Positions 1,533-63,093 of a stretch of 64,000 nucleotides of DNA are shown here, piece after piece. Within the stretch, counting starts at the first letter, position 1. Each line of letters opens with the position of its first letter. This stretch comes from a virus (taxonomy: Duplodnaviria; Caudoviricetes), in IMG/VR virus record IMGVR_UViG_2934156241_000002, positions 19,954 through 83,953 of that record. One strand, 5' to 3'. The notes below the pieces were generated by a model. The model did no database searches. It saw only the letters and a program-made list of their open reading frames with translations, and was not told the origin of the DNA. The position numbers and the translations under genes are program-made.

Positions 1533-1538
1533 GACAAC

Positions 1539-1556: not shown

Positions 1557-1787
1557 ACTCAGGTGTAAGGTGTGATCGCCGCCACGAAAGTAGCGGCAAA
1601 TACGCAGAAGGGGCGTCAACCTGGCCCGGTTGACGCCCCAACTTCCTACCCGGTCCTCGCCAAAGGGGGTAGGGACTGCTTGGCACTGAGCATACAGGCC
1701 GCTCGGCGCGGTTCTCTGGTTCCGCGCCAGCCTGTGATACTCGAAACGCCCCAGTTCCTGCCTCTCTGTCCGAACAGAGAGAATTCC

Positions 1788-33777: not shown

Positions 33778-34413
33778 TCAGCCAGCTCCGGCGGCGACAA
33801 GGGCCTTGGAGACGGCCAACTTGACCGCGGTGACGTACGACGTGAACGCGGCTGTGATGTTCTTGCGGTTGGCCCGGGTCATGTCGCCGTTGAGAAAGAA
33901 CGCCGCGCGCTGGGCGGTGCTGATCTCAAGCTGAACGCCCATGCCGCGACTGTTCCGATTACAGATGTTCTTGGGGTCGTTCCCGTTCAGCTCCTCGGTG
34001 GCGAGCTGAACGGTGAACCCGGCGTCCTTGAGGCACTGGCCGATCTGATCGCGGAGGTTGTAGTCCCGTCCTCCGAGGTAAGTGAGCGCTGTCGCGCCCG
34101 TCGCGCCGTGCCACGAGACGACGTGGGTTGCGACCTGCGCCATCGTGAGGGCCTGCGGCTCGTCGTACCGGGTGGAGGTGATGTGCAGGGCGTCGTTTGT
34201 GCCAGTGGGCATGAAGGCGTCAAGGCTGTAGAAGTCGTGGATGTCGGCCGCTGCCGCGTCCGCGAGTTCGGTCGTGCCCGTCTCGATCCCGCCTCCGTGG
34301 ATGGCGAGGTGCAGCAGGGTGGAGACCTGGGAAATGCGCCAGATCCGTTGATAGTCGATGCCCTCGATCTGGCCGCCGGCCAGCTCACCATAGGAGTGGT
34401 AGAGGTCGCCCAT
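33778..34413 (-). CDS. Poly-gamma-glutamate hydrolase family (PghP/DUF867-like)
   Basis: AIHGGGIETGTTELA, LHITSTRYDEP, SWHG, NICN, GVQLEIS. Confidence 0.88.
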   Translation of the reverse strand: MGDLYHSYGELAGGQIEGIDYQRIWRISQVSTLLHLAIHGGGIETGTTELADAAAADIHDFYSLDAFMPTGTNDALHITSTRYDEPQALTMAQVATHVVSWHGATGATALTYLGGRDYNLRDQIGQCLKDAGFTVQLATEELNGNDPKNICNRNSRGMGVQLEISTAQRAAFFLNGDMTRANRKNITAAFTSYVTAVKLAVSKALVAAGAG

Positions 34414-41576: not shown

Positions 41577-41635
41577 GGCGGGAAACCTCCGGCGGTGGAC
41601 AGTGGGCCGCCGGGCACCGTGCCGTTCGCGTCTGC

Positions 41636-41845
41636 CTAATGTCCTGTGCTGGCCGTGGGCTGGTCCGTGGCGTCTTCCGTCTCCGACCGCGCCATGGACC
41701 AACCGCGCATCCAGTAGCGGTGCCCGAACTGCTGCTCCGCGTTGCCGGCCCGGTTGTAGGGGCTGGAGTCGGCCGGGTCTCCGGCCTGGTAGGCGGCCTT
41801 GCCTTCCTGCTGCAGCGTCAGGCAGGCCTGGCGGTTCAACTCCAC
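41636..41845 (-). CDS. Rmf/CrpP-fold-like small protein
   Basis: EGKAAYQAG...SPY...YWMRGW; GAGGGAG RBS before GTG 41845. Confidence 0.6.
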   Translation of the reverse strand: MELNRQACLTLQQEGKAAYQAGDPADSSPYNRAGNAEQQFGHRYWMRGWSMARSETEDATDQPTASTGH

Positions 41846-48800: not shown

Positions 48801-51800
48801 GCCGTCGGACGCGGGTATGGGCAGGCGGGGCAGGCCAGGGCCGCCGGGACCACCCGGGCCGCCACCTCCAGGCCCACCGCGGCCGTTGCCACGGCGGCGG
48901 CGACGGCGACGCCGGCGCTGCTCGCTGTCCTCGTCCTCGTTTTCGTTCTCCGGGTCCGGTTCGCCCTCGCCGCCGTCCGGCTCGCTGGCAGGGACTGCGC
49001 TGTCGTCTTCGCTTTCCTCGTCGTCGTCCAGCTCGCCGCCAGGGCGGCTGCTTTCGCCCTCATCGGCCGGAATGCCGTCGGGGCCGCTACCGTCGTCCTC
49101 GTCATCGGCCGGGGCATCATCGGGGTCCGGAGCCGCGTCATCATCCGTGGCCGGCAGCGACTCCTCGTCGCCTTCGCCGTCCTCGTCCTCATCCGGCGTC
49201 GGGCTGGGGCCGTTCTGCTCGTCATCCTCGTTGTGCGCGAGGCGGTCGACGCGGTCGGTCAGACTGATGGTGAGCAGGTTGGCGAGGGTGGGTTCGTCGC
49301 CCTCCGGTCCCACATGCAGACGCCACGCCGGTTCCGGCTTCCCCTGGACTGTTCTGGTGACTCGCAAGGGCTCGGCCAGGAGGTGCCCAGACAGGGTTTT
49401 GTCGGACCCGCGGTTCGTCAGCCCGGTCACCCTGACTCGGTCGCCGACGGTGAGGCGGTCCGGCGCGACGATGTTGCCCTCGGCCTCAGCCTCTTGCTGC
49501 TTCTGGCGTTCCTGCTCCTCCGCAGCCCTTCTCGCCGCTCGCATCGCGGCGATCCGCTCCTCCTCTGCCTTCCTCTCCGCTATCCGCTTCTTCTCGGCCG
49601 CGATGAACTCGCGAACGGGTTCCGAGTCCTTATCGGCCCGCACCACGTTGTAGTCGGCCGGCGTGAAACCGAAGCCACCATCAGAGTTGTCCGGGTTGAA
49701 GGTGAGTTCGTCACCAACCACCGACGTCTCTGTGTGCAGCCATGTTGCGTGCTTCGTCCCGCGCGAGTTGGTGTCAAACTTGACGACGGCGTATCCGTCG
49801 CCAGCAGCGATGATGTCGCCCTGCTTCAGCTGCCGGTACGTCGTCAGATGCTCGCCTTCGCGGAGCGGACGCAGGTCTATGGATGCGTTGTGCGCTTCCA
49901 CGGAGAAGGCCCGCAACGCCTGGGCGAATTCGGAAGTATCACCGTCGTGATTGATGTGCGGCCACGCACGGCTGGCGGCCCCGCGAAGGTGGTCAGCGGC
50001 CACGTCACGGTCACCGTTGGCCAGTGCCTCTTCGGCTTCCCGCATTGTCTCCGGGATGGAACCGAGGCCGCCCAGTTCGTCGGCGTCCTCACCCGCTGCC
50101 TGCGCTGCTTCTTCCAGGGCCCTGAACCGTGTCTTCAAGGCCTCCGGCAGCGGCCCATCGGCCAAGACCGCAATGGGCGTTTCGGCGTCCGCTTCCGATG
50201 GGCTGGCCGCGGGACCATCGGCAGCGTCCGGCTGGCTCTGGTCCGCCTCGTTCTCCGGTATCTCCTCATCGGGGTACCGCAGGCGCAGCTCGGAGTCGCT
50301 GTTGTAGAACCGCTCCCGGCCGTCGTCGGTGACGATGCGGGTACGGCCGCGGCCGGTACGTACGGGGGGCTCCGCCACGGTGTGGGTATGGCCGTCTGCA
50401 TCGGTGTACCGATCGCCTTCCTCAAGATCGGCGGCGTTTCGCATACGGGCCGGCCGCAGGGCCGTGGTGTCGCGTCCCTCGGCTGCGGCGAACATGTCCG
50501 GTGTGCCGAGCTCGTCGGCGGGCCGGTCCTCGGGGTTGTCCAGGTCTGGGGCGTTGTCCGCCTGGGGCGTGGTCTGGTCGTCGACGTCGAAGAGGCCGCC
50601 GGGTGTCTCGGTGGTGCGTTTCGGCTTCGGGGCGGGCTTCGGGGCGCGGCCGGCGCGGCGGGCCTCTTCCGCTTCGAGGACCTGCAGGCGGGTTCGGTCC
50701 GCTCCGGAGAGGTCTCCGGCCATGTCCTGGCCCATCAGGTCCACGATCTCGTCGCGGAGTTCCGCGTCGTCCATGGTGGACGGCGCCTTCGACCCGCCGG
50801 GGCGTAGGGCGTCGAGTTGGTCGGACACCTCGTCCGGGGTCAGGGTGACGGTCTCGTTGCTGTCGCTCTCGCCTGCTGGTTGCTGCGTGTCCGGCGCATC
50901 GGCGGGCGGTTCGTCGCCGCTGGCATCCGTGTCCTCCGAGGTACTGAACGGGTCGGCATCGCCCTCCTCGTCGCTCTCGTCGTCGCTTCCGCCCGTCGGT
51001 GTGTCGACCGGTGGCTCGTCGTCGTTGCCGCCCGCGCCAGAGGCGGGGGACAACGCCTCTTCTTCGGCCGGCACGTCAACGTTTGAGTCGGTGGCGGCCG
51101 AGTCGCGTTCGTTGTCGGGCGTCTGCGGAGCGTCGTTGCCCGGCGTGGGGTTGGGCTCGGGGCGGAGGCGGGCGAGAGTGTCGCGTACTTCGTCCTCGGG
51201 GAGGTGCACCGTGTCGTCCTGCTCCGGCGCCGGGTTGTCCAGGTCCCACTGCATGAGGGCGAACTCGGCCTCTTCGACGGCTGCCTGTAGCGGCTCGCGC
51301 TCCTCACGGCGCGCCGTGGCGATCTTGTCGCGGTCGGCCTGCTTGTACTTCTTCTTGTCGAGTTCGTCGGGGTCGATCTCAGGCTTCGCGTCGAGGTTCG
51401 TGATGCGGCCGACGATTTCCTCGAGCAGGTTCGCCCGTGTACGGGCGTGGTTGATCTGGGGCGTGAGATCGGCGGCGGCGTGCGCGGACTGGAGGAGTGC
51501 GATCTGCTCGTCCAACTCGGGCACCTTGGCTCGGTCCGACTCCTGCAGGGCGGGTGCCTTGTCGAGCGCGTTGGACAGTCGGGTGATCATGCCCGACCCG
51601 GCGCCCTTCTTCTGCAGGTCGTTTACCGTCCGCTCGAACGTCGAGTTCCGCAGGTCGGGGAACCCGACGTGTGCGAAGAGTTGGCCGTTCGCGTCTCGTT
51701 CGGTGCGGACGCCGAAGTCGAGGCCGCGAAACTGGCCCAGGACGTGCCAGGGGCCCATTCCCTCGCGGTCGTGCTCCAGGAGGCGGGCGGTGATCTGCCG

Positions 51801-54800
51801 GTGCAGGGCCTTGCCAGCGTCGGAGCGCTCCCCGTACGGGGATCCGCCGAGCGTCATGCTGAACCGGTCGTCGGCTGCCTGGATGCGAGGGAGGGCCTGC
51901 TCGCGCCGCTGGAGGCCTTCGCGGGTGTCCTGGGCTTCCTGGCCCAGATCCTGGAGGGCTTCGCCGCGGCGGATGCGTTCGGCGGCCTCGTTGTGCTGGT
52001 CGATCTCAAGTTCCTTGAGCGCGCGGCGGGCCTTCATGAGCTGGCTCATGTAGGGGTTGCCGCCGATCTCGGCTTCCATGGTCTCGTAGTCGAACTCGGC
52101 GCCGTCGATCTCCTGGACGACGTCGCTGGAGTCGCCGTCCTCCGGCTCCGGCCGCTGGATGTCGATCAGGCCCGCGGCCTTCGCAGCGACGAATCCGGCC
52201 TTCCAGCCGTCCATGGAGCCCTTGGTCGCGAAGATGTCGATCTCGACCTCGGGGTTCATGTTCCCGTAGCGCAGGACACGGCCGTTGCGCTGCTCCATCT
52301 GCGCGGCGCCCCAGTCGAGGTCGACGTGGGAGAGGGAGATCATGCGGTCCTGGGCGTTCATGCCCACACCCGCGACGGCGCTGGAGCCGATCATGACGGA
52401 GATGTCGCCCTCGCGGGCGCGGCGGAACAGCTCCGTCATGTCCTCGGGCTTGCCGGTCTTCTTGGCGTCCTGGACGAAGGCGATCTTGTCCTCGGGGATG
52501 CCACCGGCCACCATGAGGCGCTTGAGCTCGGCGTAGGCGTCGAAGTTGCCCTTGTTCTTGCCGCCCGGTACGCCTTCGTTCAGGAAGATCATCTGGAGGG
52601 CGCCCGGGACGGGGTGGTCCGCGTTCTTGCCGTACGCGACCTTGTAGGTCCGGTCCTTCGTGGCGTGGTACCGCTCGATGTGCCGGTCCGCGACGGCCTT
52701 GAGCTTGTTGCCGGCCGGGGCGTTCGGATCGACGATGCGGGGGTCCAGGGCCACGCTGGTGCCCTCGTTGGACACCGCGAGCATGTTGTCCTCGTGGCGG
52801 TCGACCTCGCCTGTGTGTATCGCGCGGCCGCGTTCGACGAGCCCCTTGAGGCGCTTCTTCTGGTCGGGCGTCGCGTCGACCATGATCAGGTTGGGGGCGC
52901 CGCCCTTGACCTTGGGCCGGGGGATACCGACGTCGGCCGCCCGCTTGGTGTCGGTGGTCAGGCCCCACATGGTCTTCATGGCGCGCTTGTTGTGGAACTC
53001 GGAGAACCGCTCCACGACGCGCAGGCCGGAGCCGTCGGGCGCGTTCTCGATGCGCAGGGTCTTGCGGCCGAAGGTGTTGGCCCACAGATCCGGGGCGCCC
53101 GCCCTGTAGGCGTCCAGCACCCACGGGGAGGCGAACGACAGCATGGTGAACTGCTCGCTGATGCTGTTGGACATCGGCGTGCCGGTGGCGAGGGTGATCG
53201 TGGCCCGGCCCTGGCGACGGCGGTGCAGGTCGGTGGTCTTCTGGTGCAGGTCAACGCCGCGGATGGATGCCGGGTCGCCGCCGCCCTCCTTGGAGCGGAA
53301 GCCGACGCCCTTGTACCGGTGGGCCTCGTCGACAACGAAGTAGTCGAAGCCGAGGTCGTCCCAGTACGTCTCGCCGGGACGCCGCATCGGGGCAGCGTTT
53401 TTGTTGATGTTCTTGCTGACCGTCGCGATGCGCTGCTCGATCTTCGCGACGATGAAGGGGTGGCTCGGGTTGGTAGCGTCCTCGTACTGGCGGTCAAGCT
53501 GCTCGCGCAGCGCCTCCAGTTCCCGGAACGCGTAGTCGTCCTGCGCCTCCGGGCTCATCTTGATGGCGCCGAACGCTTCTTCGGTGAAGATGACCAGGTC
53601 AGGGCGGTTTGCGCGCAGCCATTCCAGGGTGCTGCCGCGCCGGTCGCCGGCCAGGTCCGCCGTAGTGATCAGGTGGATGTCGGCGTTCGGGTACAGGAAC
53701 CGGGCCTCGTCGGCCCACTGCTTGGCCAGTCCGTTCGGGACCACGGCCATCGGCTTGTTGATCTGCCCGGACGCCTTGAGCGCCTGGGTGCCTATGACGA
53801 GCGTTCCGGTCTTGCCGAGACCGACCTCGTGGGCGAGGATCACGCCTCGTTCGAACTGCATCCGCGCGGCGCCGGAGAGCTGCCAGGGGTGCGGCGTCCG
53901 GTCGGGGGTGTAGCCCTCGAGCGTGGGCGACATGCCCTCGTACGAACGGACGATGTGCCCGTTCATGATGCGGTTGTACGAGTCGGTGAGGACCGTCAGC
54001 CGGTCTGCGTTCGCCGTGGCGTACTTGGCGAACTCGGCACGCATCTGGTCGGCCTTCTGCCGAATCAGACGGGACGTAACCTCGTCGACTTCCTTGCGCT
54101 TTTCGTCCTCGTAGACGGTCAGCGAGCCGTAGCCGAGGATCGCGCGGGCGATCTCCGCGGCGTTCTTGCCCTTGTTGCCCTTGATGCCCTTGCCCGGGTC
54201 GGGCTTGACGGCGGGAACGCCGTACATGACGTTGTTCGCCTCGGGCACACGGCCGGTGTTGAGGATCCAGCCGTACCGGTCGTCGTGCGCAACGTTGAGG
54301 GTGCGATCACCCAGGTACTCGCGGAGGAAGCCCTGCAGGAGTTCCGGCGGCGTCCAGTGGGCGCCCATCTCGGGCGTGAACTGGCCGATGGTCCGGTCGC
54401 GGGGCTGGACGGCCTCCAGCGACGCCACGTTGACGGCATACGCCGGATCCCGCTCGGCGGCCTTGCGGGCGGCGTCGAGCTTGTCGCGAACGGCACCGGA
54501 CAGGTACGCGCTGGCCAGTTCGAGGCGGCCGGTGGCCGGGTCGGTGAAGACCTCGGTGCCGAGCCGCTTCAACGCCTCCTGCGGGGTGACGTCGAGGAGC
54601 CGTGCGACCTCCCCGAGGTCCACCTCACCGTTCGCGGCGACGACTGCGGCCAGGGCCGCCTTCGGATCGTCGGTCGACGTCAGCGGCTGGCGGCGTGCAG
54701 CGGCGCGCTCGGTGAAGATGCGGGAGAGAACCGGCTCACCCGTCTTGGCGTCCCACCGCTCCAGGGCGAGGACGGCCCCGGCGTCCGGGTCGGCCCGAAA

Positions 54801-57800
54801 GTAGCCCCACGCGGTCGGGCGGTCGTTCTTCGTGCGGTGCTGGCCCGGCCTGGACAGCGGCCCGTGCTTTTCGACGTAGGCGGCGTGCAGGTTCCGGAGC
54901 TCGGCGCGCAGCGCTTCGGCGCGGTCCTCCTCGTCATTCTTCCGGTCGAGCTCGCGAAGTCCGGCGGCGACGTCGCGGAGCCGCATGAGGTCGCGGAGCT
55001 GGGCAGTGTTGCCGTCGGCCGGCTCCATCCGGACCGGTTCGGCGCCGTTGACGTGCTGGTAGAACGCGCCGTCGTCGCCCTCGTACAGGCGGCCGGTCCA
55101 GTCGTTGGCGTGCTTCTCCCGGGCAGTCTGGAGCTGCACCGCGGGCCGGTCGTCGCCGTCGGGGTGCGGTGCGTAGCCGCGGCCGTCGGCCTTCGCCTTG
55201 GTGGCGATGTCGTCGAGCGCGGCACGCAGCTGCTCAGCGGCCTTGGCCGCGTCGCCCTTGACGGTGACTTCGGGTCCGAACGGGCCGGACTGTGTGGTCA
55301 GCTCGCCGAGGATGTGCTCGGGGTGCTCGTCGAAGTACGCGTTGACGTGGTGCGGTGTGCCGTTGATGTCCCGCTCGGGGGCGTCCAGCCACGACGTGTC
55401 GGCCGGCTCGCTGCCGTCCTCGCGGCGGCGGAACACCAGGACGTCGGTAGTGACCCCGGTGCCGGCGTCGTTGAACACACCGGACGGGAGTCGGACGGCG
55501 CCCACCAGGTCGCCGTACTTGGCCATCTGGCGGCGGGCCTTGTCGCCCTTGGAGTCCAGCGTCTGGCGTGAGGTGATGACGGCGGTGATCCCGCCGGGCC
55601 GGACGAGGGCTATCTCCTTGGTGACGAACCCGTTGTGCAGGCTCTCGGCCGGGTACCGCTTGTCGTCGAACGGGATACGGGCGAAGGGAACGTTGCCGAT
55701 CGCGGCATCGAACGTCCCAGGGTGGGCGTCGGTCTCGGCGAAGGACTCGTTGAGGATGTTGGCGTGGGGGTAGATCGCCTGAGCGATCCGGGCCGTGGTC
55801 GGATCGAGCTCGACACCGGTCAGGCGTGCACCATCGGGGGCGACGCCGAAGAACGTGCCCGCGCCGGAACCGGCCTCCAGGACGTCACCGCGGTCGAACC
55901 CGAGCGCGCGCAGACCATCCCACATCGCATCGGCGATCGGCTGCGGCGTGTAGTGCATGGACAGCACACCGCGGGACGCCTGCCGGAACTCGATTGGGGT
56001 GAGAACCCTCTGCAGCTCACGGCGGATATCGTCGTACTCGGACCACCGCTCGTGGTCACGGTCAAACTTGCCGTGCCGCGTGCCGCCCTGCTGGTAGCGG
56101 GGCTCCTTCGCGTTCGGCTCGGTGGCGAAAATAACGGGGACCGAGCCCCACCCGGACCAACGGGCAAGGATGCGCTTCTCGTCGTCGGTGGCCGGCCGGT
56201 TCTCAGCCTCCAGGGCCTTGAGGACCCTGATCGCCTCGACGTTGGCGGTAGCGCGGGCGCGAGCGCCCTTCGGTACGTCGGCCGGGTCCGGCCGGAACCG
56301 CGCTACGCGTCGTACATCAGATCCCTGATCTCCTGCAGGTGCTGCTCCATCGCCGTCTGCTCCGGAGCCGTCTCCGCCCCGGGCTCCGGCTCGGGCAGGA
56401 GCTCCGCCAGAACCATCGCCGTCGCGTCCGCCCTGATCTGCCTGATCCGGCCGGCTGCCGCCTCGTACTCCTCCGGCTCCGGAACCGCGCTCTCCAGCGC
56501 CTCCTCGGCCACCAGAATCCTGCTCTCGATCTCCTGGGCTTTCGCCGTCACGAACGCCTCGGGGTCGGTCATCGCTGCCCATTCCTTGGGCAGGTGCGTC
56601 CGCCAGTGATCCCGGACCGTCGGGCTGAACATGTTCATCGTCGTCGCCTCCCAGCGCTGCACGGAGTGCGGCCTGCTGTGCCTCGATCTCCTCGCGGGAG
56701 ATGACCTTCTGGTCGTCGTCCCCGCCATTCTTGCGGACTGCCTCCCGCGTCGCCTCAATCGTGTGCAGAGCCACGTTGATGGAAGCGAGCCGGGTCTTGG
56801 CCTTCGACCGGTCCGAGCTGTCCGAGTCCCGGTCCGTGGCCTGCACGGATACCTTGCGTGCCAGCTCCTCCGTCACCCGGTTCAGCTCGGCGAGCAGGCC
56901 TTCGGGAACCGACAGGTTCCGGCCCTTGATGTGGCGGCCCTTCTTGTTGCTGGGGATCAGCGGGTTCACACCGTCGTGCCAGCCGTACTGGCTCGCGAAC
57001 AGGCCGTACAGGTACTGCCGTTCTGCTGACGCCGTTGACAGGCGGTCGCCGAGCCGGTTGCTCTGGTACAGCTCGAAGAACATCTTCGGAACGAACACGC
57101 GATGCGCCCGGCCCCAGGTGCGTTCGCCGATACGGTCGTCGTCGGTGTCGTACGCGCGGACCATCGCGGCCAGAGCTGCGGCACGCGAGTGGTAGACCTC
57201 GGGGCCGTGCCCCCAGCTTTCCTTGCCCCAGGTCCATCCGAGTTTTGGGCGGGCGTGGCCGGTCGTCGCGATGTAGTCGATGAACCCGTAGCCACTGCGG
57301 CCGTCGATGCTGATCTGGCCGTTGGAGTCCGGGTTGTCGATCCTGACGAGTAGCTGCTCAACATCGGGGGTCGTGTCGCGGCGGTTCAGCTCTGCCTCGA
57401 TCGCCGCCATCCGGTCCTTGCGGGCCGCCTTGATGTCGTCTGTCTCGGAGTACGAGGAACGTGTGGCTTGGAGCTCGCTGTACTCCTTGATCAGCTTCTC
57501 GGTGTCGACACCGTCCGGGGATTCACGGTCCGTGATGGCACGCTTCTCGCGCTCGCGCCGCTCCCGCTTCACGTCGTCCATCCGCGCCTGCAGGACCTGC
57601 TGCGCCTCGGGGGGCGCCTTCCGGAAGTCGCGGACGATCAGATCGTGGTACTCGTCCGTCAGGGCTTCGTCGTCGAGGTCTGCGACCGGGGGCCGGTCGG
57701 CGATCTGCTCGGCGCGGCGGCGCTGCTGCTCGCCGACGAGCCGGTCGTGGCGGGCCTGCAGGGCCTGTCGAACGGTCTGCTCCGCGGTGTGGTCGTCACC

Positions 57801-60362
57801 GGCCGCCTGGTGCAGGGTCGCCCTGTCCGCCGCGGTCTTGCGCGCGCGTCCCAGCGCGGCGTTGTCGAGGGTGGTCGGGTCGGTGTCGTCGTCGAGGACG
57901 GCCTGGGAACGCCGGCGCCGCTCCGCGTAGATCGCTCGTTCGGCGTCGTTGGCGTCCTCGCCCTTGCGTCGTCCGTAGGTTCCGCGCTCCCGCTGTGATT
58001 CCTGGACGCGGGTCTCGATGTCGGAGTCGCTGAGCGCCGACGCGTCCCGGAGCGCGTTGTCGTCGCGTTCCTGCCTGCGACGCGCAATTTCGGCGTCGAT
58101 GAGTTCGAGTTCGTTCCCGACGCGCTTTCGCGCGGACTCAGACCGGGCGCTCGCCGTGGTCCGCCATCGGGCCTGCTGCATCGTCGTGAGCTGCGCATCG
58201 TCGGCGTCGGCGATCTTCTTGCGCAGCGTCTCGGTCTCGTCGACGGCGTTGTCCGGGGCGCCGGGGGCGCCTGCACCGGTCTCGTCGGTGATGTGGATGC
58301 TGCGGCCCTGGCGGGCGAGCTTGGCCAGTACCTCCGAGATCCGTTCGTCGCGCGTCGTGTCCGTCATGTTCGACTGCGTCGACCAGCCGTTCAGCGACGG
58401 AGCCCACTTAATGGCACGGGTGGAACCGATCGCGGAGTAGTCCCCCTCGTCGCGCTTCACCGTGCCGCGGAACACCATGACGCGCTTCGGGGGCCGGCCG
58501 TCCTTGCCGGGCTTCATCACCCACGCCGCGGTGACGCGGTCGCGCTCGTTGGGGTTCTGGGCGGCGCGGAGCAAGCGGGCCGCGACGGCGGCGCCCTGCT
58601 TCGGGTTCTGCGGTACGGGGATGGTGACGCCGTCGATGGTGACCTTCGGCGGGTAGCCGCGCCCGCTGGTGACGGCGACCTGCCCGTCCGGGCCATACAG
58701 GGTGAACGCGCCACCGTGGCTGACGTAGTGGTAGCCGTCGACCCCGTCAACCGGCTCGGCGTCGGCCGGCAGTACGACGGCCTGCGGCTCATCCGGGGTC
58801 ACCTGGGGGACGGGCGGGGCCGCCCTGTCAGGTATGCCGGGTGCGGCCGACCCTGGGGCGATCTCCGGGACGTCCTCACCAGTGCCCGCCGCGGTGTTCT
58901 CGCGCTGCCACCTCGCTGCGGCGTCGGTGATGACCTCGGTCACGGAGCGGTTGTCGTCGGAACGCCAGGTCAGGAGACGGGTGTCCGGGTCAGACAGGTC
59001 GAGCGGATTCCCGTCACCGCCCTTGGGCGGGTTCTCAACGAAGGACCGAGCGAAGGCCTGCGCATCTCGCATCGCCGGCCAACGGGGACTGAACTGCGTC
59101 CCGGTGGCCGTGGCACGCAGATACCACTCGCCGTTTTCGTCCTGGCCGACGACGAACTGGCCGCGGCCGACGAGCTTCAGCCTGTCGTTATTGATCAGCT
59201 CATCGAGTACCTGCGCCGCTCGCTGCATCCGGGCGTCATCCGGACCCGCCTGGAGCGCGCGGTCGCGGCCATCGCGCCAGTGGGCTCGAACGGCCTGGAG
59301 GGTGCTGAACCGCTGCCCGCCCGGCCCGGGGCCGCCGGGGGCCGGGGTGCTGCTCTCCGGGGGCTTCGGTGCAGCCGCAGGGGCGGTGGTGCTGTCGAAC
59401 TCCTTGCGGGCTCGGATGATGGCGCCCTGCACGTTCTCGCCCTTGGTGGAGCGCCAGTCACGGGCCTCACGGTCAAGGCTCGGGTGGGAGAAGTCGAACG
59501 GCTGGTTGAACTGAGTGAGCTGCCCGTTGACGGCGCTCTTGTCGAGGTGTTCGGCGAACCGGGCCGCGTCCTGCGCGGTTTCGAAGTCACCGGCGGCGTC
59601 GACGCGCTGGCCGGTGCCCGTGGCCGTGAGGTACCAGCGGCCGGTCCGATCGTCACGCAGGATCGCGAGACGGCCGGACGGCGTGACCCGCAGGTCGTCA
59701 TCGATGGCGACCGAGCGCAGGAAGGTGGCCATGTCCTGGCTCGTACCGGGCTGCTGTGCGATCTGTGTGAAGTGGCGCCGGACGGCTGCGGTATCGGCGT
59801 ACCGGGCCCCGGCGGCATGCTGCCGGTTCGGCAGCGCATCGAAGTGAACCGGGTGGCTGCCGTCCTCGGGCTCGTCCTGGTCGTCCTCGTCGTCCGGGCC
59901 GTCGCCGGCATCGTCGCCGATGGGGCGGCCGCGGTCATCCTCGTCGTGAGGGTCGTTCGGGGTGCTCGGGTCGCCGTCGTCGTCGTGAACGACCCCGTTG
60001 CCACGCCGCTCGTCCTTGAGGCGCTTCTCGTCCTCTTCCGCAACCTTGTCTTCGTCGTCGGTGGGCTTGGATCCGTCCGGCCGGGCCACCATGCTGACCC
60101 ACTTGGCACTGGTGGTGTGCCTGCGCCCCTTGAATTCGTTGGGGCCGGTCTGGTCCTGCACGAGGATGCGGTCGTGCGGGAGCGCGCGGACGACGCGTGC
60201 GAGGTCGCCGCCCCACAGCCGGACCGTTCCGCCGGTCTCGATGAACCGGCCCTTCGAGTCCCGGGGGTGCAGGGCGGGATTCCACGGCTGTCGTATGACC
60301 TTGACCTCGAGGTCGCGACTCAGGTCCTGCGACTCAGCCTGTGCAGTGGGGCGATTCAGCAT
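42825..60362 (-). CDS. Giant (about 5,845 aa) DarB-like protein: N6-methyltransferase plus SNF2 helicase core with long accessory arms
   Basis: VLEAGSGAGTF and IGNVPF (MTase); AHEVGLGKT, DEAH and QRNGRVLRYGN (SF2); N-terminal HPRDSKGRF. Start re-called to ATG 60362 from promoter spacing. Confidence 0.9.
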   Translation of the reverse strand: MLNRPTAQAESQDLSRDLEVKVIRQPWNPALHPRDSKGRFIETGGTVRLWGGDLARVVRALPHDRILVQDQTGPNEFKGRRHTTSAKWVSMVARPDGSKPTDDEDKVAEEDEKRLKDERRGNGVVHDDDGDPSTPNDPHDEDDRGRPIGDDAGDGPDDEDDQDEPEDGSHPVHFDALPNRQHAAGARYADTAAVRRHFTQIAQQPGTSQDMATFLRSVAIDDDLRVTPSGRLAILRDDRTGRWYLTATGTGQRVDAAGDFETAQDAARFAEHLDKSAVNGQLTQFNQPFDFSHPSLDREARDWRSTKGENVQGAIIRARKEFDSTTAPAAAPKPPESSTPAPGGPGPGGQRFSTLQAVRAHWRDGRDRALQAGPDDARMQRAAQVLDELINNDRLKLVGRGQFVVGQDENGEWYLRATATGTQFSPRWPAMRDAQAFARSFVENPPKGGDGNPLDLSDPDTRLLTWRSDDNRSVTEVITDAAARWQRENTAAGTGEDVPEIAPGSAAPGIPDRAAPPVPQVTPDEPQAVVLPADAEPVDGVDGYHYVSHGGAFTLYGPDGQVAVTSGRGYPPKVTIDGVTIPVPQNPKQGAAVAARLLRAAQNPNERDRVTAAWVMKPGKDGRPPKRVMVFRGTVKRDEGDYSAIGSTRAIKWAPSLNGWSTQSNMTDTTRDERISEVLAKLARQGRSIHITDETGAGAPGAPDNAVDETETLRKKIADADDAQLTTMQQARWRTTASARSESARKRVGNELELIDAEIARRRQERDDNALRDASALSDSDIETRVQESQRERGTYGRRKGEDANDAERAIYAERRRRSQAVLDDDTDPTTLDNAALGRARKTAADRATLHQAAGDDHTAEQTVRQALQARHDRLVGEQQRRRAEQIADRPPVADLDDEALTDEYHDLIVRDFRKAPPEAQQVLQARMDDVKRERREREKRAITDRESPDGVDTEKLIKEYSELQATRSSYSETDDIKAARKDRMAAIEAELNRRDTTPDVEQLLVRIDNPDSNGQISIDGRSGYGFIDYIATTGHARPKLGWTWGKESWGHGPEVYHSRAAALAAMVRAYDTDDDRIGERTWGRAHRVFVPKMFFELYQSNRLGDRLSTASAERQYLYGLFASQYGWHDGVNPLIPSNKKGRHIKGRNLSVPEGLLAELNRVTEELARKVSVQATDRDSDSSDRSKAKTRLASINVALHTIEATREAVRKNGGDDDQKVISREEIEAQQAALRAALGGDDDEHVQPDGPGSLADAPAQGMGSDDRPRGVRDGESPGDREQDSGGRGGAGERGSGAGGVRGGSRPDQADQGGRDGDGSGGAPARAGARGGDGSGADGDGAAPAGDQGSDVRRVARFRPDPADVPKGARARATANVEAIRVLKALEAENRPATDDEKRILARWSGWGSVPVIFATEPNAKEPRYQQGGTRHGKFDRDHERWSEYDDIRRELQRVLTPIEFRQASRGVLSMHYTPQPIADAMWDGLRALGFDRGDVLEAGSGAGTFFGVAPDGARLTGVELDPTTARIAQAIYPHANILNESFAETDAHPGTFDAAIGNVPFARIPFDDKRYPAESLHNGFVTKEIALVRPGGITAVITSRQTLDSKGDKARRQMAKYGDLVGAVRLPSGVFNDAGTGVTTDVLVFRRREDGSEPADTSWLDAPERDINGTPHHVNAYFDEHPEHILGELTTQSGPFGPEVTVKGDAAKAAEQLRAALDDIATKAKADGRGYAPHPDGDDRPAVQLQTAREKHANDWTGRLYEGDDGAFYQHVNGAEPVRMEPADGNTAQLRDLMRLRDVAAGLRELDRKNDEEDRAEALRAELRNLHAAYVEKHGPLSRPGQHRTKNDRPTAWGYFRADPDAGAVLALERWDAKTGEPVLSRIFTERAAARRQPLTSTDDPKAALAAVVAANGEVDLGEVARLLDVTPQEALKRLGTEVFTDPATGRLELASAYLSGAVRDKLDAARKAAERDPAYAVNVASLEAVQPRDRTIGQFTPEMGAHWTPPELLQGFLREYLGDRTLNVAHDDRYGWILNTGRVPEANNVMYGVPAVKPDPGKGIKGNKGKNAAEIARAILGYGSLTVYEDEKRKEVDEVTSRLIRQKADQMRAEFAKYATANADRLTVLTDSYNRIMNGHIVRSYEGMSPTLEGYTPDRTPHPWQLSGAARMQFERGVILAHEVGLGKTGTLVIGTQALKASGQINKPMAVVPNGLAKQWADEARFLYPNADIHLITTADLAGDRRGSTLEWLRANRPDLVIFTEEAFGAIKMSPEAQDDYAFRELEALREQLDRQYEDATNPSHPFIVAKIEQRIATVSKNINKNAAPMRRPGETYWDDLGFDYFVVDEAHRYKGVGFRSKEGGGDPASIRGVDLHQKTTDLHRRRQGRATITLATGTPMSNSISEQFTMLSFASPWVLDAYRAGAPDLWANTFGRKTLRIENAPDGSGLRVVERFSEFHNKRAMKTMWGLTTDTKRAADVGIPRPKVKGGAPNLIMVDATPDQKKRLKGLVERGRAIHTGEVDRHEDNMLAVSNEGTSVALDPRIVDPNAPAGNKLKAVADRHIERYHATKDRTYKVAYGKNADHPVPGALQMIFLNEGVPGGKNKGNFDAYAELKRLMVAGGIPEDKIAFVQDAKKTGKPEDMTELFRRAREGDISVMIGSSAVAGVGMNAQDRMISLSHVDLDWGAAQMEQRNGRVLRYGNMNPEVEIDIFATKGSMDGWKAGFVAAKAAGLIDIQRPEPEDGDSSDVVQEIDGAEFDYETMEAEIGGNPYMSQLMKARRALKELEIDQHNEAAERIRRGEALQDLGQEAQDTREGLQRREQALPRIQAADDRFSMTLGGSPYGERSDAGKALHRQITARLLEHDREGMGPWHVLGQFRGLDFGVRTERDANGQLFAHVGFPDLRNSTFERTVNDLQKKGAGSGMITRLSNALDKAPALQESDRAKVPELDEQIALLQSAHAAADLTPQINHARTRANLLEEIVGRITNLDAKPEIDPDELDKKKYKQADRDKIATARREEREPLQAAVEEAEFALMQWDLDNPAPEQDDTVHLPEDEVRDTLARLRPEPNPTPGNDAPQTPDNERDSAATDSNVDVPAEEEALSPASGAGGNDDEPPVDTPTGGSDDESDEEGDADPFSTSEDTDASGDEPPADAPDTQQPAGESDSNETVTLTPDEVSDQLDALRPGGSKAPSTMDDAELRDEIVDLMGQDMAGDLSGADRTRLQVLEAEEARRAGRAPKPAPKPKRTTETPGGLFDVDDQTTPQADNAPDLDNPEDRPADELGTPDMFAAAEGRDTTALRPARMRNAADLEEGDRYTDADGHTHTVAEPPVRTGRGRTRIVTDDGRERFYNSDSELRLRYPDEEIPENEADQSQPDAADGPAASPSEADAETPIAVLADGPLPEALKTRFRALEEAAQAAGEDADELGGLGSIPETMREAEEALANGDRDVAADHLRGAASRAWPHINHDGDTSEFAQALRAFSVEAHNASIDLRPLREGEHLTTYRQLKQGDIIAAGDGYAVVKFDTNSRGTKHATWLHTETSVVGDELTFNPDNSDGGFGFTPADYNVVRADKDSEPVREFIAAEKKRIAERKAEEERIAAMRAARRAAEEQERQKQQEAEAEGNIVAPDRLTVGDRVRVTGLTNRGSDKTLSGHLLAEPLRVTRTVQGKPEPAWRLHVGPEGDEPTLANLLTISLTDRVDRLAHNEDDEQNGPSPTPDEDEDGEGDEESLPATDDDAAPDPDDAPADDEDDGSGPDGIPADEGESSRPGGELDDDEESEDDSAVPASEPDGGEGEPDPENENEDEDSEQRRRRRRRRRGNGRGGPGGGGPGGPGGPGLPRLPIPASDGSRGEGGPGEGRASNGRGNRPARHRDVESLRRAWRNGDGLTAAEDTPERRAALTQASERKGLQLSPGGGLVTWPEQQEDGTTLWRFAQARNGTNLPGIILTSDDPEEARALAGRFDEITDRNGAPFDWHEAWGPASVAAWRDGEGRNLPQALRAVQDDYEQERNGAFTLPDDLTGLDDAALEAAFRQGLGPADELRVMAEMDRRDGYVDERIRAAVPDTPPADADEAESRGRAMDQALGFGDTDVTQPAPATPGGLRREFDALDEERFQAAMQATGGRMLRHEAEAQGIDPRALFSGSKYSNKRAKELASPELNRWFDGDGETTGNGRLTYTQYRQREVDRALRAEFADIDEARYLAAIAATNGYFFRRQHEAGPIDERELFSGGSMSQFDRWKNVASEELQDWFDANGGRLTFNQFKRSRHENERTARDLHEEEQRRAAEAGGSEDTAEAGGSEDTAEAGGSEDTVTVTADDVAPAPSRDVESTEDATFRFGGHDKMREFADRADLRPIGDGETVWLHGRQIGHIRNIYRSNPNRSPVWDAEPFFGLDIDRSSRSQSRDTAIANLVVRALRDGPVDPTNPSEDVWRTVTGHLTNRAWELPESLLNVPEARARHDRLTTLLEAFRGHQSPSGDLRDDLVQARDDFAGLSDLLPDTRRTMGQRGRLNNRSFWAGKLLNGLGDPESDHQRPHGKDPDSDEQRPRGTDEPQGDSDALSPAVPTPDEPVNPPEDTARSQVEPESEPAPEPIGGQPAHWARVEDLAPGDMVRMDGTTKKGRKTQRAGYVYTSPVRVDVTRRGRTEQMWRTWITENPDGTGAAGNVYTSINATAARAESPDDVVPGSPVSGAQSALRAGGLPDVIPADRNGRGMFPGSTVGSNQREGTVTGATSTTVSVHWSDGRDDAAVSPSSLTVTGGERPDGWTTSGQRVRPQHIVSDTDGARLGPVDEVNGDEVTIATAEGNITRSAEGLRVTGEVRDDAPTTSPVAGIDTPAAADLKEGDIVVLDLDDTIATIAVTGTRRDGDRVTIEYADTTTGEVGEIEVDASAVLPRAQGRDGETPDLGPDDAPDADDDMTVHGPRNRVDPVTGPTVDPALTPDDRAVIDDHADGPDDDPDAQQAAARITGDLPVTPEQAAALAAQLRSTADPSTMEGRAALRAADHLDQAAGRTPPPGLDRPRPSNAAQLSEGDMVAMPDERRGDQVHVFRVIDAEDGPGGVRSLLLADENQQWRRRIVHGAMPVWQLPEAEPDAPTAPDSDDTSPAPSTPAAPSAPATPSLPVTRVRPGNLRVGDLIDAPTSRTGYQLNGHRRLTIISAPHRNGWWMQLTGIDDDGNVHDFGLHSGREVSVYERNRPTPALPPIGAPRDPNPGPQNDVDRIVNDHVRGLAARIIDEAIAGTEPPGDIHALRERIAQRLTRAALRNARRSARQDSIAALDAAGVTGPDRDAALQALQRARIDSHRATVRAALRTINDLEPLPDESDEDLAARARDLLSLIPDGIAGALRPEADGDDDIARTVAGHTADAVNALLRQLQAAGVDPGDADRIARGLTQQLAGTRQSTARRIARRVATVSPDAGRQPGLLARIVALLIRMAKRLVELVKAGAQEIGEKWRGARERMRRLRAFLGRLVRRVRQWPESRRLARLHRAVTLPTTDGESLASRVAHWAGLMPEPGRFGQAPRRVTWWRPTTWTQLAAGRLPERSDRVHWTPDRAVDGGPGLTALRHMAALRAAGSDVDQEVTRRLAGALGDDFGEDPHSTLQHADDYVATSERRLVNLQAARSSSTLPDDPELEVEITAARMEVNGARREYEALRARYAAAVPDAVAAALADIRDMGPEGNTSLVFAPDSDSDAEGSVRGVQRLIPRSWLNTPATRRVTAVNGPEGRYDANGQRITVADLADGGLGTAGNALAQHLAQHLGDLDAAQRVFWFTQTHTGRPGARRMRYTALGRLLSRTQTQTDTGDTLARSVQAMFSGDWYLDDDLRAFLLGLLATR
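47405..47485 (-). repeat. 27-bp tandem repeat x3 (AEAGGSEDT) in the giant gene
   Basis: Three identical copies of ccgtgtcttcggaacctccggcttcgg. Confidence 0.9.
56303..56638 (-). CDS. TnpV-like protein nested out of frame in the giant gene
   Basis: GGGAGG-N8-ATG; MNMFSPTVRDHWRTHLPKEWAAMTDPEAFV...YEAAAGRIRQIRADATAMVLAELL. Confidence 0.75.
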   Translation of the reverse strand: MNMFSPTVRDHWRTHLPKEWAAMTDPEAFVTAKAQEIESRILVAEEALESAVPEPEEYEAAAGRIRQIRADATAMVLAELLPEPEPGAETAPEQTAMEQHLQEIRDLMYDA

Positions 60363-60390
60363 GCGGCGGACCATGCACAGCGCAGGTGGT

Positions 60391-60630: not shown

Positions 60631-63093
60631 TTACTCCTTGGGGTTGGTGTCGTAGTGGAGGCGGCAGCGGCAGTTGACCGTGAGGGCGATCGGGGCGAAG
60701 GGGTCGCCCGGGTAACGGAGGTTCGCTCCGGCGACGGTGTACGGGGTGCCGACGGGCAGCGTCTTGCCCTGCAGGGCCTTGTGGGCGGGGCGTACACGGT
60801 CGTCCCCGCGGGTGACCCAGGTTCGGACGACGTCGGGGCCTGCGTGCTCTGCGGCCGCGTCTGCGGCGCCGTTGATGGTGGCGACGGCGCACGTCTCGGC
60901 GATCCGGGCGATCAGGGCTGGCTCTGCGGACATGTAGAAGCCGGTGACAGCGCTCTCGAGGTCCCAGATGCCTTCGGCGTCGAGCTGGACAGTGCGCAGG
61001 ACTTCGGCGAGCTCGGCGAGGAAACCGGTGATGGCCTCGCCGGCGTACGCCGCGGTGACGATGGCGGCCGCGGCCGCGGCCGGGGGCACGGTGTCTGCGC
61101 CGGCGAGGGCCTGCCCCACCTTTCGGGCGGTGGCGATGGCAGCCTGCTGCAAGATCGGTGTGAGTGTCTGGCTGATCGCCTCTGCCCAGCGGGCGGCGCT
61201 GACGACACGGTCCTGGTCAAGGTCCGCGTCGACGTGCCGTACGTCGACGTCGTTGTCGGGCTCCCAGTAACGCGTGCCCTTACGGATCTTCGGTGCGCGG
61301 AGACGGGCGAGGATGACGCCCTCCTGCCGCGCCAGAAGGGCGGTGACAGCTGCGGCCACGGCCATGGACAGGGCGTCGAAGTCGGCATCGGTGACTTCGT
61401 GCCCGTCGTCCTTCGGGAGGGCCTTCGTCTCGACCGTTTCCCGGGCGGACGCCACGTCTTCGGCAGCGGTGCCGGGCAGTCCGGTCTCCTCCTGGGTTTC
61501 GCGGGCGTGCGCCACATCGGCGGCCGCGTCCCCGGGGCCGGGGCTGGAGGCGGAGGCGCGGGCCGCGGCAACGGCGTCGGTGGCCGACTGCGTCGATCCT
61601 GCGGGCAGGGCAAGCGGTTCTCCCAGTGCCCGCGCTGCCGCGACGTCGGCGGCGCCCTGACCTGGATCGAGGGCGCGCGCGGCGGCAACATCCGCGGCCG
61701 CGGTGTCCGGTGACGAACCAGGGGGCAGCGGAGCACCGGTGGGAAGAGTGCCGGCCGGGCCTTCGGCTGCGGGGTCGGGTCCGAGGCCGAGCGCTGCGGC
61801 GTCCGCCGCGTTGGCCGGTACGGGTGCCTTCTGCGGGCTGATCCACAGGGCCCTGGACTGCGGGACACCGAATGGCAGCCGTCCCGCGATCTTCCGGTAC
61901 TCGTCGATGGTGATGAGTCCGGCTTCCCACTCCTTGCGGGCCTCTTCACGTTCCTGGCGCCGGGGGAACTCGAGGGCCTGGACGCCTGAGGTGTCGAACC
62001 GCACCACCCAGCCGTCGTCGACGGCGTCGTCGAATCCAGAGGCGACCAGGTTGAGGTGGGGCAGTTCGGTGTGGTCCCAGAACGTCCATTCCTCGCGGTC
62101 CGCGTTGGCGTACGTCCGCTCGGAGGCGTTGCCAACGATGGACTCGGGTACGCCGAACGCGGCCAGGATTTCGCCCTTGGACGTGCCGGACAGCGTTTCG
62201 TACGCCATCTCGCGGGGCCGGGCGGAGGTGTCGACGTAGTTGATGCCGCCGGGCCCCGTGCCGACGAGGGTGAGCTGGCCGGCGTTGTGCGCGCCGGGGA
62301 CCAGGCGCTGCTGGATCCGGTCGACTTCTCGGGGGTCGACGCCGTCAAGGTCGATCCCGACGATCCCGCCGGGGCGGCCGTCGTTGTCGATGAAGCTGAT
62401 GTTGTACGTGCGGGCCTTGACGTCGAGATCGATGGAGAGCCCTGCGGCCTCGAGCGGGGTCACGCCGCAGAACGGGTCGGTGGGGTGCGGATCTCTGATC
62501 CAGATGACGTACTTGGGCAGCAGTTCGCGGACCTGGCCGCTGTAGTCGGTGAACTCGAAGTGCGCGATGTAGTCGGCGTTCCTGGCGTCCGGGATGATCT
62601 GGACGCGGTCAGGGGGGAGGAGATCGAGGCGTACGAGGGTGCCGCCGCGGCTGTACGTCTTCTCGATGAACACGCCCTTCTTGGACAGAAGGAGCTGGGC
62701 GCTCAACCGCTTCTTGAAGACGTCACCGGTCTCCAGGGGGTTGGCCTTCTTGTTGAGCAGTCTCAACAGGGGGTGGTCGTCGAGGGTTTCCTCGAAACGG
62801 CGTTCGTCGCCGCCGCGCCCGATCTGGATTGGGAGCGTGCTGACGTGCTTGCTGATGGCCTCGACGGACTTGAACGTCCAGATGGAGCGTTCGTAGCCCT
62901 CGACGATGACGCGCTCCATGTCCCAGCCGTCTGCACGGCCGGGGGTGCCCCACATGTTGGTGACGCCGGCGTACGACATCGAGACGTACGAGTTGCCCGC
63001 GAGAAGGTCTTTCGTTTCCCGGGCGGGCGGCGGGGGAGCTGCGGTGCGTGGGACAAGGAGGCCCCGGAGCGCGGGAAGGAACAGGCGGGGCAT
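60631..63093 (-). CDS. Portal protein fused to a MuF (head morphogenesis) domain
   Basis: HPLLRLL..NP, LLPPDRV, GVTPLEAA, ILAAFGVP, ITIDEYR; C-terminal WVTRGDDRVRPAH...YPGDP...NCRC. Confidence 0.9.
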   Translation of the reverse strand: MPRLFLPALRGLLVPRTAAPPPPARETKDLLAGNSYVSMSYAGVTNMWGTPGRADGWDMERVIVEGYERSIWTFKSVEAISKHVSTLPIQIGRGGDERRFEETLDDHPLLRLLNKKANPLETGDVFKKRLSAQLLLSKKGVFIEKTYSRGGTLVRLDLLPPDRVQIIPDARNADYIAHFEFTDYSGQVRELLPKYVIWIRDPHPTDPFCGVTPLEAAGLSIDLDVKARTYNISFIDNDGRPGGIVGIDLDGVDPREVDRIQQRLVPGAHNAGQLTLVGTGPGGINYVDTSARPREMAYETLSGTSKGEILAAFGVPESIVGNASERTYANADREEWTFWDHTELPHLNLVASGFDDAVDDGWVVRFDTSGVQALEFPRRQEREEARKEWEAGLITIDEYRKIAGRLPFGVPQSRALWISPQKAPVPANAADAAALGLGPDPAAEGPAGTLPTGAPLPPGSSPDTAAADVAAARALDPGQGAADVAAARALGEPLALPAGSTQSATDAVAAARASASSPGPGDAAADVAHARETQEETGLPGTAAEDVASARETVETKALPKDDGHEVTDADFDALSMAVAAAVTALLARQEGVILARLRAPKIRKGTRYWEPDNDVDVRHVDADLDQDRVVSAARWAEAISQTLTPILQQAAIATARKVGQALAGADTVPPAAAAAAIVTAAYAGEAITGFLAELAEVLRTVQLDAEGIWDLESAVTGFYMSAEPALIARIAETCAVATINGAADAAAEHAGPDVVRTWVTRGDDRVRPAHKALQGKTLPVGTPYTVAGANLRYPGDPFAPIALTVNCRCRLHYDTNPKE

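Follow-up and report, generated by a model that had tools for sequence, protein, structure and literature searches.

A 64,000-nucleotide (nt) stretch of the IMG/VR provirus record IMGVR_UViG_2934156241_000002 (bases 19954-83953 of 83,953; G+C content 65-72%), here called the window, carries a giant open reading frame (ORF) for a DarB-like protein, and a complete gene for a small protein of 111 amino acids (aa), distantly related to the TnpV family, appears to lie wholly inside it, on the same strand and in another frame. The two ORFs probably form a genuine, fully nested gene pair, and true dual coding, the simplest account of the data, is strongly supported by sequence comparison. An earlier note, made from the letters of the window, had described the small ORF together with a GGGAGG 8 nt before its ATG; apart from small corrections, coordinates and features are as described there. 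The features of the overlap are:

42825..60374 (-): giant ORF, putative gene for a DarB-like polyvalent virion protein; 5,849 codons, continuous across the nested gene
56303..56638 (-): nested TnpV-like gene; 111 aa and a TAG stop, frame +1 relative to the giant ORF
56638..56636 (-) and 56305..56303 (-): ATG start and TAG stop of the nested gene, read directly from the sequence
56652..56647 (-): Shine-Dalgarno-like GGGAGG, 8 nt upstream of the nested ATG; spacer CGACGACG
56304..56639 (-): giant-frame reading of the overlap, giant codons 1246-1357 (112 codons); a G/R/D/A-rich linker, predicted to be disordered

Coding signals and selection in the two frames

The nested ORF can also be read in a longer, TTG-initiated form (56303..56758; 151 aa). 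The ATG start is preferred because the homologues begin with MNMF or MSMF at this ATG and because a Shine-Dalgarno (SD) sequence precedes it. Inside the interval, the G+C content by nested codon position is 0.69/0.44/0.91. A codon-position scan of the giant gene gives a third-position G+C peak of 0.82-0.96 everywhere except from ~56,700 to 56,320, where the peak (0.88-0.92) shifts to the giant first position, which is the nested third position, and the giant third position drops to 0.44-0.54. The local coding signature therefore belongs to the small frame. Across the overlap the giant frame reads DDDEHVQPDGPG...GDQGSDVRR, then ARFRPDPADVPKGARARATANVEAIRVLK..., and the G/R/D-rich peptide that the earlier note quoted as filler was found in this reading. 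A 111-codon ORF in an alternative frame is by itself unremarkable at 69% G+C: when the synonymous codons of the nested protein are resampled, the giant frame is open across the nested gene with a chance of 0.19-0.35. Since an open alternative frame is cheap at this G+C content, the case rests on comparison, and the comparative tests described below place the ORF well beyond chance.

A word-indexed search (alignment A1) found ten homologues of the small protein, of 105-112 aa and 54-83% identity. Several of them are Streptomyces hypothetical proteins called as stand-alone genes, which bears out the view that the small ORF is a real, conserved gene. Pattern scans with A1 located 36 related loci (53-85% identity), 21 in Streptomyces genomes and 15 in IMG/VR contigs, which together with the window's own copy make up the 37 close copies considered here. 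The nested start is ATG or GTG in all 37, the stop is TAG in 36 and TAA in one, and by eye a purine-rich SD sequence (GGGAGG or GAAGGGG-type) is comparably placed upstream of the start in most of them, weaker variants such as GAGAGG also occurring. A tblastn search with the nested protein matched only two plasmid records, and nothing in the phage collection, where profile searches were needed.

The giant frame is open in 34 of the 36 related loci; it can be followed without a stop from ~3,700-3,900 nt before the small gene as far as the fetched DNA extends. As these relatives were assembled independently, an assembly join of two separate genes, which the earlier note had named as a possible refutation, is excluded. 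A complete plasmid relative, CP108533.1 (130-kb, circular, with portal and DnaE; 93.6% identity), is annotated with the portal, a small ORF ahead of the giant gene and then one 17,541-nt 'hypothetical protein' coding sequence (CDS), the nested gene being absent from the annotation, just as had been expected of annotation pipelines. At two loci, L009 (a Streptomyces sp. contig) and L040 (S. hirsutus plasmid NZ_CP109265.1, ~165.8-166.4 kb), giant-gene remnants of ~650 nt surround an intact small ORF. They cover giant residues ~1203-1435, in L009 ~1209-1435, with a frame change near 1373-1377, and the small ORF of L040 is annotated as a stand-alone hypothetical protein beside an IS5 transposase.

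All 37 copies are free of giant-frame stops inside the small gene, although 1.0-1.8 per copy would be expected from resampling. Their common descent means that counts over the copies are not independent, and sites were therefore counted as well. A dangerous site was defined as a nested third position where the next codon starts with AA, AG or GA, at which a T gives a giant-frame TAA, TAG or TGA. Across 48 sequences (37 close, 11 distant), codons ending in T occupy 263 of 2,557 safe sites (10.3%) versus none of 1,213 dangerous sites. Counted by columns in the 37 close copies, T occurs somewhere in 21 of 47 safe columns versus 0 of 23 dangerous ones (Fisher one-sided p=3.3e-5). Single-coding controls do use T at dangerous sites: 5.2% (1,170/22,402; safe sites 6.3%) in the giant gene outside the interval at 35 loci, and 5.0% (67/1,330; safe sites 7.7%) in 14 other window genes. 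Stop avoidance is therefore specific to the overlap.

The ratio of nonsynonymous to synonymous substitution rates (dN/dS) was estimated by the Nei-Gojobori method from codons aligned with the protein sequences as guide. The values given are pairwise medians for two clades, taken separately:

nested frame: 0.43 and 0.46
giant frame over the same alignment columns: 1.60 and 1.27
third frame: 1.09 and 0.86
upstream flank: 0.38 and 0.36
downstream flank (900 nt): 0.10 and 0.14

By these ratios the small frame is under moderate purifying selection, and the giant frame seems to be constrained mainly against stops, perhaps weakly otherwise; at a giant-frame dN/dS of 1.27-1.60, residue-level constraint is not visible on the overlap columns. 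The nested-frame dS, 0.19 and 0.175, lies below that of the flanks (0.28-0.46), which hints at an extra constraint on the silent sites of the small gene. Clade 1, to which the window belongs, also has a conserved giant-frame ATG/GTG 56 nt past the nested ATG, at ~56580 (-) (GMG/GVG), which is absent in clade 2; it may mirror the conserved EW of the small protein, or a shorter DarB-like isoform may start there.

The end of the overlap is informative as well. The first giant-frame ATG, GTG or TTG after the nested stop is 29 to 338 nt away and its position varies among copies; a conserved RFRP...ANVEAIRVLK...LARWSGWGS starts one to two codons past that stop; and a slippery heptamer of the form X_XXY_YYZ in the nested frame is found in 0 of 37 copies, anywhere in the nested ORF. 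These three observations together indicate that ribosomes would have to be in the giant frame by the time they leave the overlap. Re-initiation downstream of the small gene was considered and rejected, as inspection found no NTG in the giant frame near the nested stop.

Identity and predicted structure of the two products

Residues ~1177-3048 of the giant protein match PHROG 10089, 'DarB-like antirestriction' (E 1.6e-137 and 8.7e-161). Pfam N6_Mtase scores 21.4-23.1 bits against a cut-off of 20.4, and SNF2-rel_dom 29.7 bits against 24.9, while ResIII and Helicase_C stay just under their cut-offs in the region of giant residues 2175-2704. The giant ORF thus holds a methylase and then an SNF2/SF2 helicase in one polypeptide, as a DarB-like polyvalent protein should. 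Iyer, Burroughs and Aravind (2017; PMC5512222) describe the LPD36 domain as four helices with a GXGU motif (GXG[GAS]), N-terminal to the methylase of polyvalent proteins. The giant protein has a GWGS within predicted helices (residues 1371-1467) that fits this definition by inspection. The domains are placed as follows:

55995..56303 (-): LPD36-like helical domain, assigned by inspection; begins one codon past the nested stop; ARFRPDP...ANVEAIRVLK...LARWSGWGS
56142-56153 (-): GWGS motif of the LPD36-like domain; giant residues 1408-1411
55374..55760 (-): N6 adenine DNA methyltransferase core; giant residues 1539-1667; Pfam N6_Mtase
52263..53852 (-): SNF2-type helicase region; giant residues 2175-2704; Pfam SNF2-rel_dom

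The small ORF had been said to end just before the methylase region, and what follows directly on its stop is this LPD36-like domain. The giant gene sits in the head-morphogenesis module, between the portal and the prohead-protease/major capsid genes. Judging from its family and context, the giant protein is most likely an anti-restriction protein that is packaged in the capsid and injected. Its first 1,246 residues (56639-60374 (-)) and ~2,800 C-terminal residues (42825-51230 (-)) have no Pfam or PHROG match; these regions hold long acidic and G/P-rich low-complexity runs and a triple 'EAGGSEDTA' repeat.

Giant residues 1167-1468 were modelled with AlphaFold2 from a 34-sequence alignment (A4). 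The segment is predicted to be helical on both sides of the overlap, with block means of the predicted local distance difference test (pLDDT) of 54-77 upstream (one block at 54) and 72-93 downstream. Between these flanks, giant residues 1243-1351 (segment residues 77-185) have a pLDDT below 50 and no secondary structure, which nearly coincides with overlap codons 1246-1357; the giant-frame linker is thus predicted to be disordered almost exactly over the overlap. The model of the small protein (143-sequence alignment A3) has five helices and a mean pLDDT of 90.6.

The family TnpV (PF14198) is named after tnpV of the clostridial elements Tn4451/Tn4453. Its members have ~110-130 aa, are all-helical and are borne by mobile elements; the small protein has the corresponding size and setting, with 111 aa, a predicted helical structure and a place on a prophage or phage-plasmid. 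A phmmer search from the nested protein against 1.84 billion representatives, made without a length limit, gave 136 proteins at E<=1e-3, all of 75-275 aa and mostly aligned from their own N-termini. At E<=0.005, 23 of the 135 relatives scanned match PF14198, all in one register (protein 2-81 = profile 24-111), and 20 of 57 relatives match it at E<=1. One relative, P0117 (phmmer E 2.8e-4 from the nested protein), scores 34.4 bits on PF14198 against a curated cut-off of 27, the other 22 remaining below it. In the protein-language-model Atlas, the nearest clusters, in Actinomycetota, are automatically named TnpV protein.

Since the link runs via relatives and the window protein's own score misses the threshold, the protein is TnpV-like by remote, transitive homology, and we regard it, on profile evidence, as a remote branch of the TnpV superfamily. 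The kinship with TnpV that the earlier note suggested thus stands through the relatives and the Atlas names; the window protein itself has no Pfam TnpV score, and a six-frame search of the whole record with PF14198 gave nothing at E<=10. A weak second match to the nested protein at 8560-8697 (-) (E 0.0076, 35% identity, residues 41-86), inside a 215-aa open frame, is probably due to chance. Among the listed matches of a literature search on TnpV, in their titles and abstract openings, no established function was found.

Distribution of the nested layout

In a search of 401 genomes of the class with profile A2, 15 genomes matched and 12 loci were fetched. At 11 of these 12 distant actinomycete loci, a TnpV-like gene is followed by a methylase-helicase ORF with FRP..DLAPSG..ANLDAI..LARWSGWG, which matches PHROG 10089 with E=0 in the two cases tested. 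At the same 11 loci, the frame of this ORF, -1 with respect to the small gene, runs through the small gene from end to end with no stop; the chance of this is 0.25-0.48 per locus. At five of them, the ORF has ~1,790 aa and a conserved MARRK.QIDGQLSLESLWA peptide at its N-terminus, and its start precedes the ATG of the small gene by only ~25 codons. As these shorter ORFs also span the small gene, nesting is independent of the window's long N-terminal extension. The peptide that opens the ~1,790-aa DarB-like ORFs just upstream of the nested gene, in L060-L065, has the form M.RR..QIDGQ(L/M)SLESLWA, and hydrophobic-acidic motifs like it (QLSLW, QLTLWD, LDFDA) stand at the same place in other lineages.

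Phage records were obtained by a tblastn search with the LPD36-methylase N-terminus, which gave 120 records. Nineteen were sampled, and their ORFs were assessed with a hidden Markov model of A3, Pfam scans and a six-frame search with PF14198. At least 12 of the 19 have a TnpV or TnpV-like ORF in frame +1 relative to the giant ORF. These are the phages Burkholderia BcepIL02, Erwinia PEp14, Pseudomonas Itty13, Klebsiella SopranoGao, Ralstonia Gerry, Agrobacterium Atu_ph08, Vibrio VvAW1 and Ochrobactrum POI1126, the 39%-GC contig OR846775, and the gut contigs MT836741, MT835575 and MT837363. Four of these 12 nested ORFs exceed the Pfam TnpV cut-off (28.7, 141.3, 133 and 89.5 bits), and the three gut contigs have a bona fide TnpV (89-141 bits) in the same +1 relation inside giant ORFs. 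Between phages whose hosts belong to different genera, the nested proteins show 38-64% identity.

In the remaining sampled records the picture is mixed. The +1 ORF of Pseudoalteromonas Y7 is linked to that of Gerry by blastp (1.4e-4). Pseudomonas 8P, Pseudomonas USP_18 and a Helicobacter prophage have +1 ORFs of 90-134 aa at the same place with no significant TnpV match, a Streptococcus phage has a stand-alone TnpV 29 kb away, and one gut contig has no TnpV-like ORF. Sinorhizobium phage PBC5 (L075/L077, NC_003324.1, ~24.5-26.5 kb) has its DarB-like gene split into gp22 and gp21, and the LPD36-methylase start falls in an unannotated gap. The TnpV-like part shares the frame of gp22 and is overlapped for ~575 nt by the methylase frame. 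This arrangement could reflect an indel, a sequencing error or a real frameshift arrangement. In Itty13 (L073, NC_070969.1, 2987-9922), the RefSeq genes gp01-gp03 run opposite in strand to an open DarB-like frame of 2,312+ codons that spans the locus; the strand chosen in the annotation of the giant gene is apparently wrong.

Records of lower G+C content make the resampling test decisive for single records: 5.3-8.6 giant-frame stops are expected inside the TnpV gene and none is observed. The probability of an open giant frame is, by record:

MT836741: 0.0002
MT837363: 0.0004
MT835575: 0.0034
OR846775: <0.0002
VvAW1: <0.00025
Helicobacter prophage: <0.00025
SopranoGao: 0.0022
Y7: 0.0037

From this distribution, the nesting is ancient and widespread. 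The proposal in the earlier note that the giant gene of this element arose by read-through fusion of a two-gene cassette is not borne out, as the layout also occurs in the ~1,790-aa genes without the extension, in proteobacterial phages and in gut contigs of conjugative type.

Mechanism, rival explanations and genomic setting

In the mechanism that we propose, the giant gene would cross a pre-existing small gene in the -1 frame, and the 112 codons of the overlap would serve as a disordered, G/R/D-rich spacer ahead of the LPD36-methylase-SNF2 core. The small 111-aa helical protein would be made from its own SD sequence and ATG, by internal initiation on the late mRNA of the giant gene, with both frames being translated. 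The giant protein would probably be packaged in the virion and injected to counter restriction, and the small protein may be a dedicated partner of the methylase-helicase module (an assembly, packaging or activity factor) made in cis, a role suggested because of the fixed linkage of the two across phyla. The small gene may have been there first as a coding frame, and an N-terminal extension of the methylase-helicase gene may then have overprinted it; the codon usage in the small frame and the stand-alone TnpV found elsewhere suggest this order. Of the dual coding claimed earlier, the part that stands is that selection keeps both frames open, whereas the translation of both is something we infer.

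Several observations weigh against this account. Among the sequencing runs searched for this sequence, none that is listed as RNA contains it. L009 and L017 are exceptions to the open giant frame, both with an intact small gene, L017 through a single frame change immediately after the small gene's stop. The 37 copies share descent, as noted above, and the conservation of the SD sequence could partly reflect giant-frame residues. Selection on the nested frame is only moderate, and between the clades dN/dS is near-equal and thus uninformative (nested 0.75, giant 0.87, third 0.83). The comparison of dN/dS in both frames that the earlier note had proposed shows purifying selection on the nested frame within clades and a giant-frame ratio above 1 there, and between clades the frames are indistinguishable. 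Amino-acid identity is barely higher in the nested frame (0.82 versus 0.74 in the giant frame; 0.54 versus 0.50 for the window against clade 2), and variable columns number 67, 66 and 79 of 111 by nested codon position. The nested protein has no Pfam match at E<=1, in its 110/111-aa or its 151-aa form, and no PHROG match at E<=1e-3, and NCBIfam gave no meaningful match on its relatives. Foldseek found no structural relative of the small protein in PDB or BFVD at E<=1e-3, and solved structures searched by sequence with the family profile gave a best E of 0.61, so the fold offers no functional lead. As direct Pfam, PHROG and NCBIfam matches and a structural relative are all lacking, the function proposed for the small protein is a guess from linkage. 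In PBC5, finally, the upstream ORF and the TnpV-like part share one frame, an arrangement that would suit a frameshift product as well.

PBC5 leads to the strongest rival explanation, programmed ribosomal frameshifting, in which the small ORF would be a domain: either the TnpV frame slips by -1 to give a TnpV-methylase-helicase fusion, or the giant frame slips by +1 to give a product of the N-terminal part and TnpV. The upstream ORF of PBC5 has 812+ aa and is overlapped by the methylase frame, the giant gene of MT836741 is split into two overlapping frames, and the downstream part has no start codon of its own, all of which suits such slippage. A short overlap would be enough for it, yet the giant frame is open across the whole gene (0 of 1,213 dangerous sites carry T), the slippery heptamer is missing from the nested frame of all 37 close copies, and the nested ORF is preceded by an SD sequence with ATG or GTG at the 12 distant loci, in the majority of the 12 phage ORFs and, by eye, in most of the close copies. 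Besides, all 136 relatives from the search without length limits are small proteins, and the PBC5 relatives Atu_ph08 and POI1126 carry one continuous giant ORF. We therefore consider frameshifting improbable.

It is less probable still that the N-terminal protein, TnpV and the methylase-helicase are encoded by separate genes and that the frame stays open across TnpV as a by-product of high G+C content. The frequency with which resampling at 69% G+C leaves the frame open (19-35%) would allow it, and gene callers often report the small gene as stand-alone. However, the upstream part has no stop and the downstream part no start, stop avoidance is specific to the interval when compared with the controls, and the layout recurs at 38-54% G+C, where the per-record chance runs from <0.0002 to 0.0037. 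The virion association reported for the homologous giant protein of phage JC1 (mass spectrometry, PMC9144972) also speaks against separate genes.

A small ORF that is a decaying relic or a shadow of the giant frame, with no functional protein, has an equally slight chance. The dN/dS of the small frame (0.43-0.46) is not very low, and the window copy has no direct family match, as a relic might show. Against this stand the codon signature, which lies in the small frame and not in the giant one, a giant-frame dN/dS above 1 on the overlap columns, start and stop intact in all 37 copies down to 53% identity, the confident AlphaFold2 model of the small protein, and the homologous nested ORFs (38-64% identical) in phages of different host genera. 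The remnants at L009 and L040 point the same way, as they keep the small ORF intact after loss of the giant gene. A sequencing or assembly error as the source of the frame relations is next to impossible: the record is an IMG/VR provirus of unknown sequencing quality, with nothing specific to suggest an error, and identical frame relations are found in 34 of 36 independent records and in the complete plasmid CP108533.1.

Returning to true dual coding as the preferred explanation, known systems offer partial parallels. An embedded, out-of-frame gene is known from Bacillus subtilis, where comS lies inside srfAB. For Bcep22-like phages, Rz1 embedded in Rz is noted in PMC9144972. As in the lambda-type spanin pair Rz/Rz1 and in comS/srfAB, the larger gene of the window fully encloses a complete small gene on its own strand, which has a separate start codon and another reading frame; one transcript presumably serves both. 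It differs in that its larger gene reads the shared DNA as a spacer predicted to be disordered, and the small gene holds the codon signature, so that the large gene appears to have overprinted the small one. The TnpV-like pairing is moreover conserved across Actinomycetota, phages of Proteobacteria and low-GC elements, with both products deduced from sequence.

The giant gene shares with P1 DarB and other LPD36-methylase-SNF2 polyvalent proteins its PHROG 10089 match, N6 methylase, SNF2 helicase and place among head genes; ahead of the methylase it has a GWGS-bearing helical stretch that resembles LPD36 by inspection. P1 DarB, in contrast, begins at the methylase core, and no frame of P1 contains a TnpV-like ORF (family profile, E<=10). 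The P1 protein Ulx was considered as a counterpart of TnpV and rejected: its gene is located on the downstream side of darB, and no P1 sequence matches the family profile at the same threshold. With respect to Pfam TnpV itself, the relatives of the window protein match the profile in one register, whereas the window protein falls below any Pfam score, as a remote branch would, and TnpV can stand alone, as in the Streptococcus phage.

The available part of PMC5512222 makes no mention of TnpV, of frameshifts or overlapping genes, or of a gene inside a DarB-like gene, and that of PMC9144972, the paper on a Bcep22-like phage, mentions no gene inside the DarB-like gene. In listings and abstract openings of the accessible literature on TnpV, on overlapping or embedded genes and on DarB-like proteins (subscription papers, such as the original Bcep22 and P1 Dar reports, and supplements being outside this scope), no description of the nesting was found. 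The window thus appears to be a further member of a recurrent, apparently unannotated layout, the kind of nested gene being known from Rz/Rz1 and comS. Gene callers forbid long same-strand overlaps, and the small gene is therefore either dropped, as in CP108533.1 and the phage records that annotate only the giant CDS, or called alone; as a consequence, the domain architectures and gene counts of these elements are systematically wrong.

The pairing gives TnpV, a Pfam family with no established function, a fixed genomic partner in the DarB-like methylase-helicase module, and makes its function directly testable by mutations that are silent in one frame. It is also a clear example of apparent overprinting, where an older small gene came to be read by a long one as a disordered linker, and the arrangement then persisted across very distant hosts. 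A bolder proposal, which we find rather doubtful, is that TnpV is no accessory transposon gene but might act across bacterial phyla as an obligate partner, encoded in cis, of polyvalent anti-restriction proteins that are injected or transferred. Its gene would be kept in the disordered giant spacer so that the small protein arises from the same late mRNA, next to the nascent giant chain, and serves there as a chaperone or adaptor that loads the methylase-helicase into capsids in phages or into the transfer channel in conjugative elements. If so, these overlaps would rank among the most widely conserved regions of same-strand dual coding known from prokaryotic mobile elements.

The window as a whole is a siphovirus-like Streptomyces prophage or phage-plasmid. 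Just upstream of the giant gene lies:

60631..63093 (-): portal protein gene; PHROG 2662, E 3.4e-80

Other neighbours encode a prohead protease fused to a NUDIX domain, a major head protein, a tape measure protein, tail proteins and an endolysin. The protease fusion is unusual: the 689-aa ORF at 39633-41702 (-) matches a head-maturation protease (residues 65-216) and a MutT/NUDIX hydrolase (residues 236-299). The C-terminal ~90 residues of the portal protein match 'head morphogenesis' (MuF-like) profiles, and a separate 177-aa ORF at 32913-33446 (-) matches the same regions of these profiles. A 211-aa ORF in the structural module, at 33778-34413 (-), matches a poly-gamma-glutamate hydrolase PHROG (E 2.2e-38).

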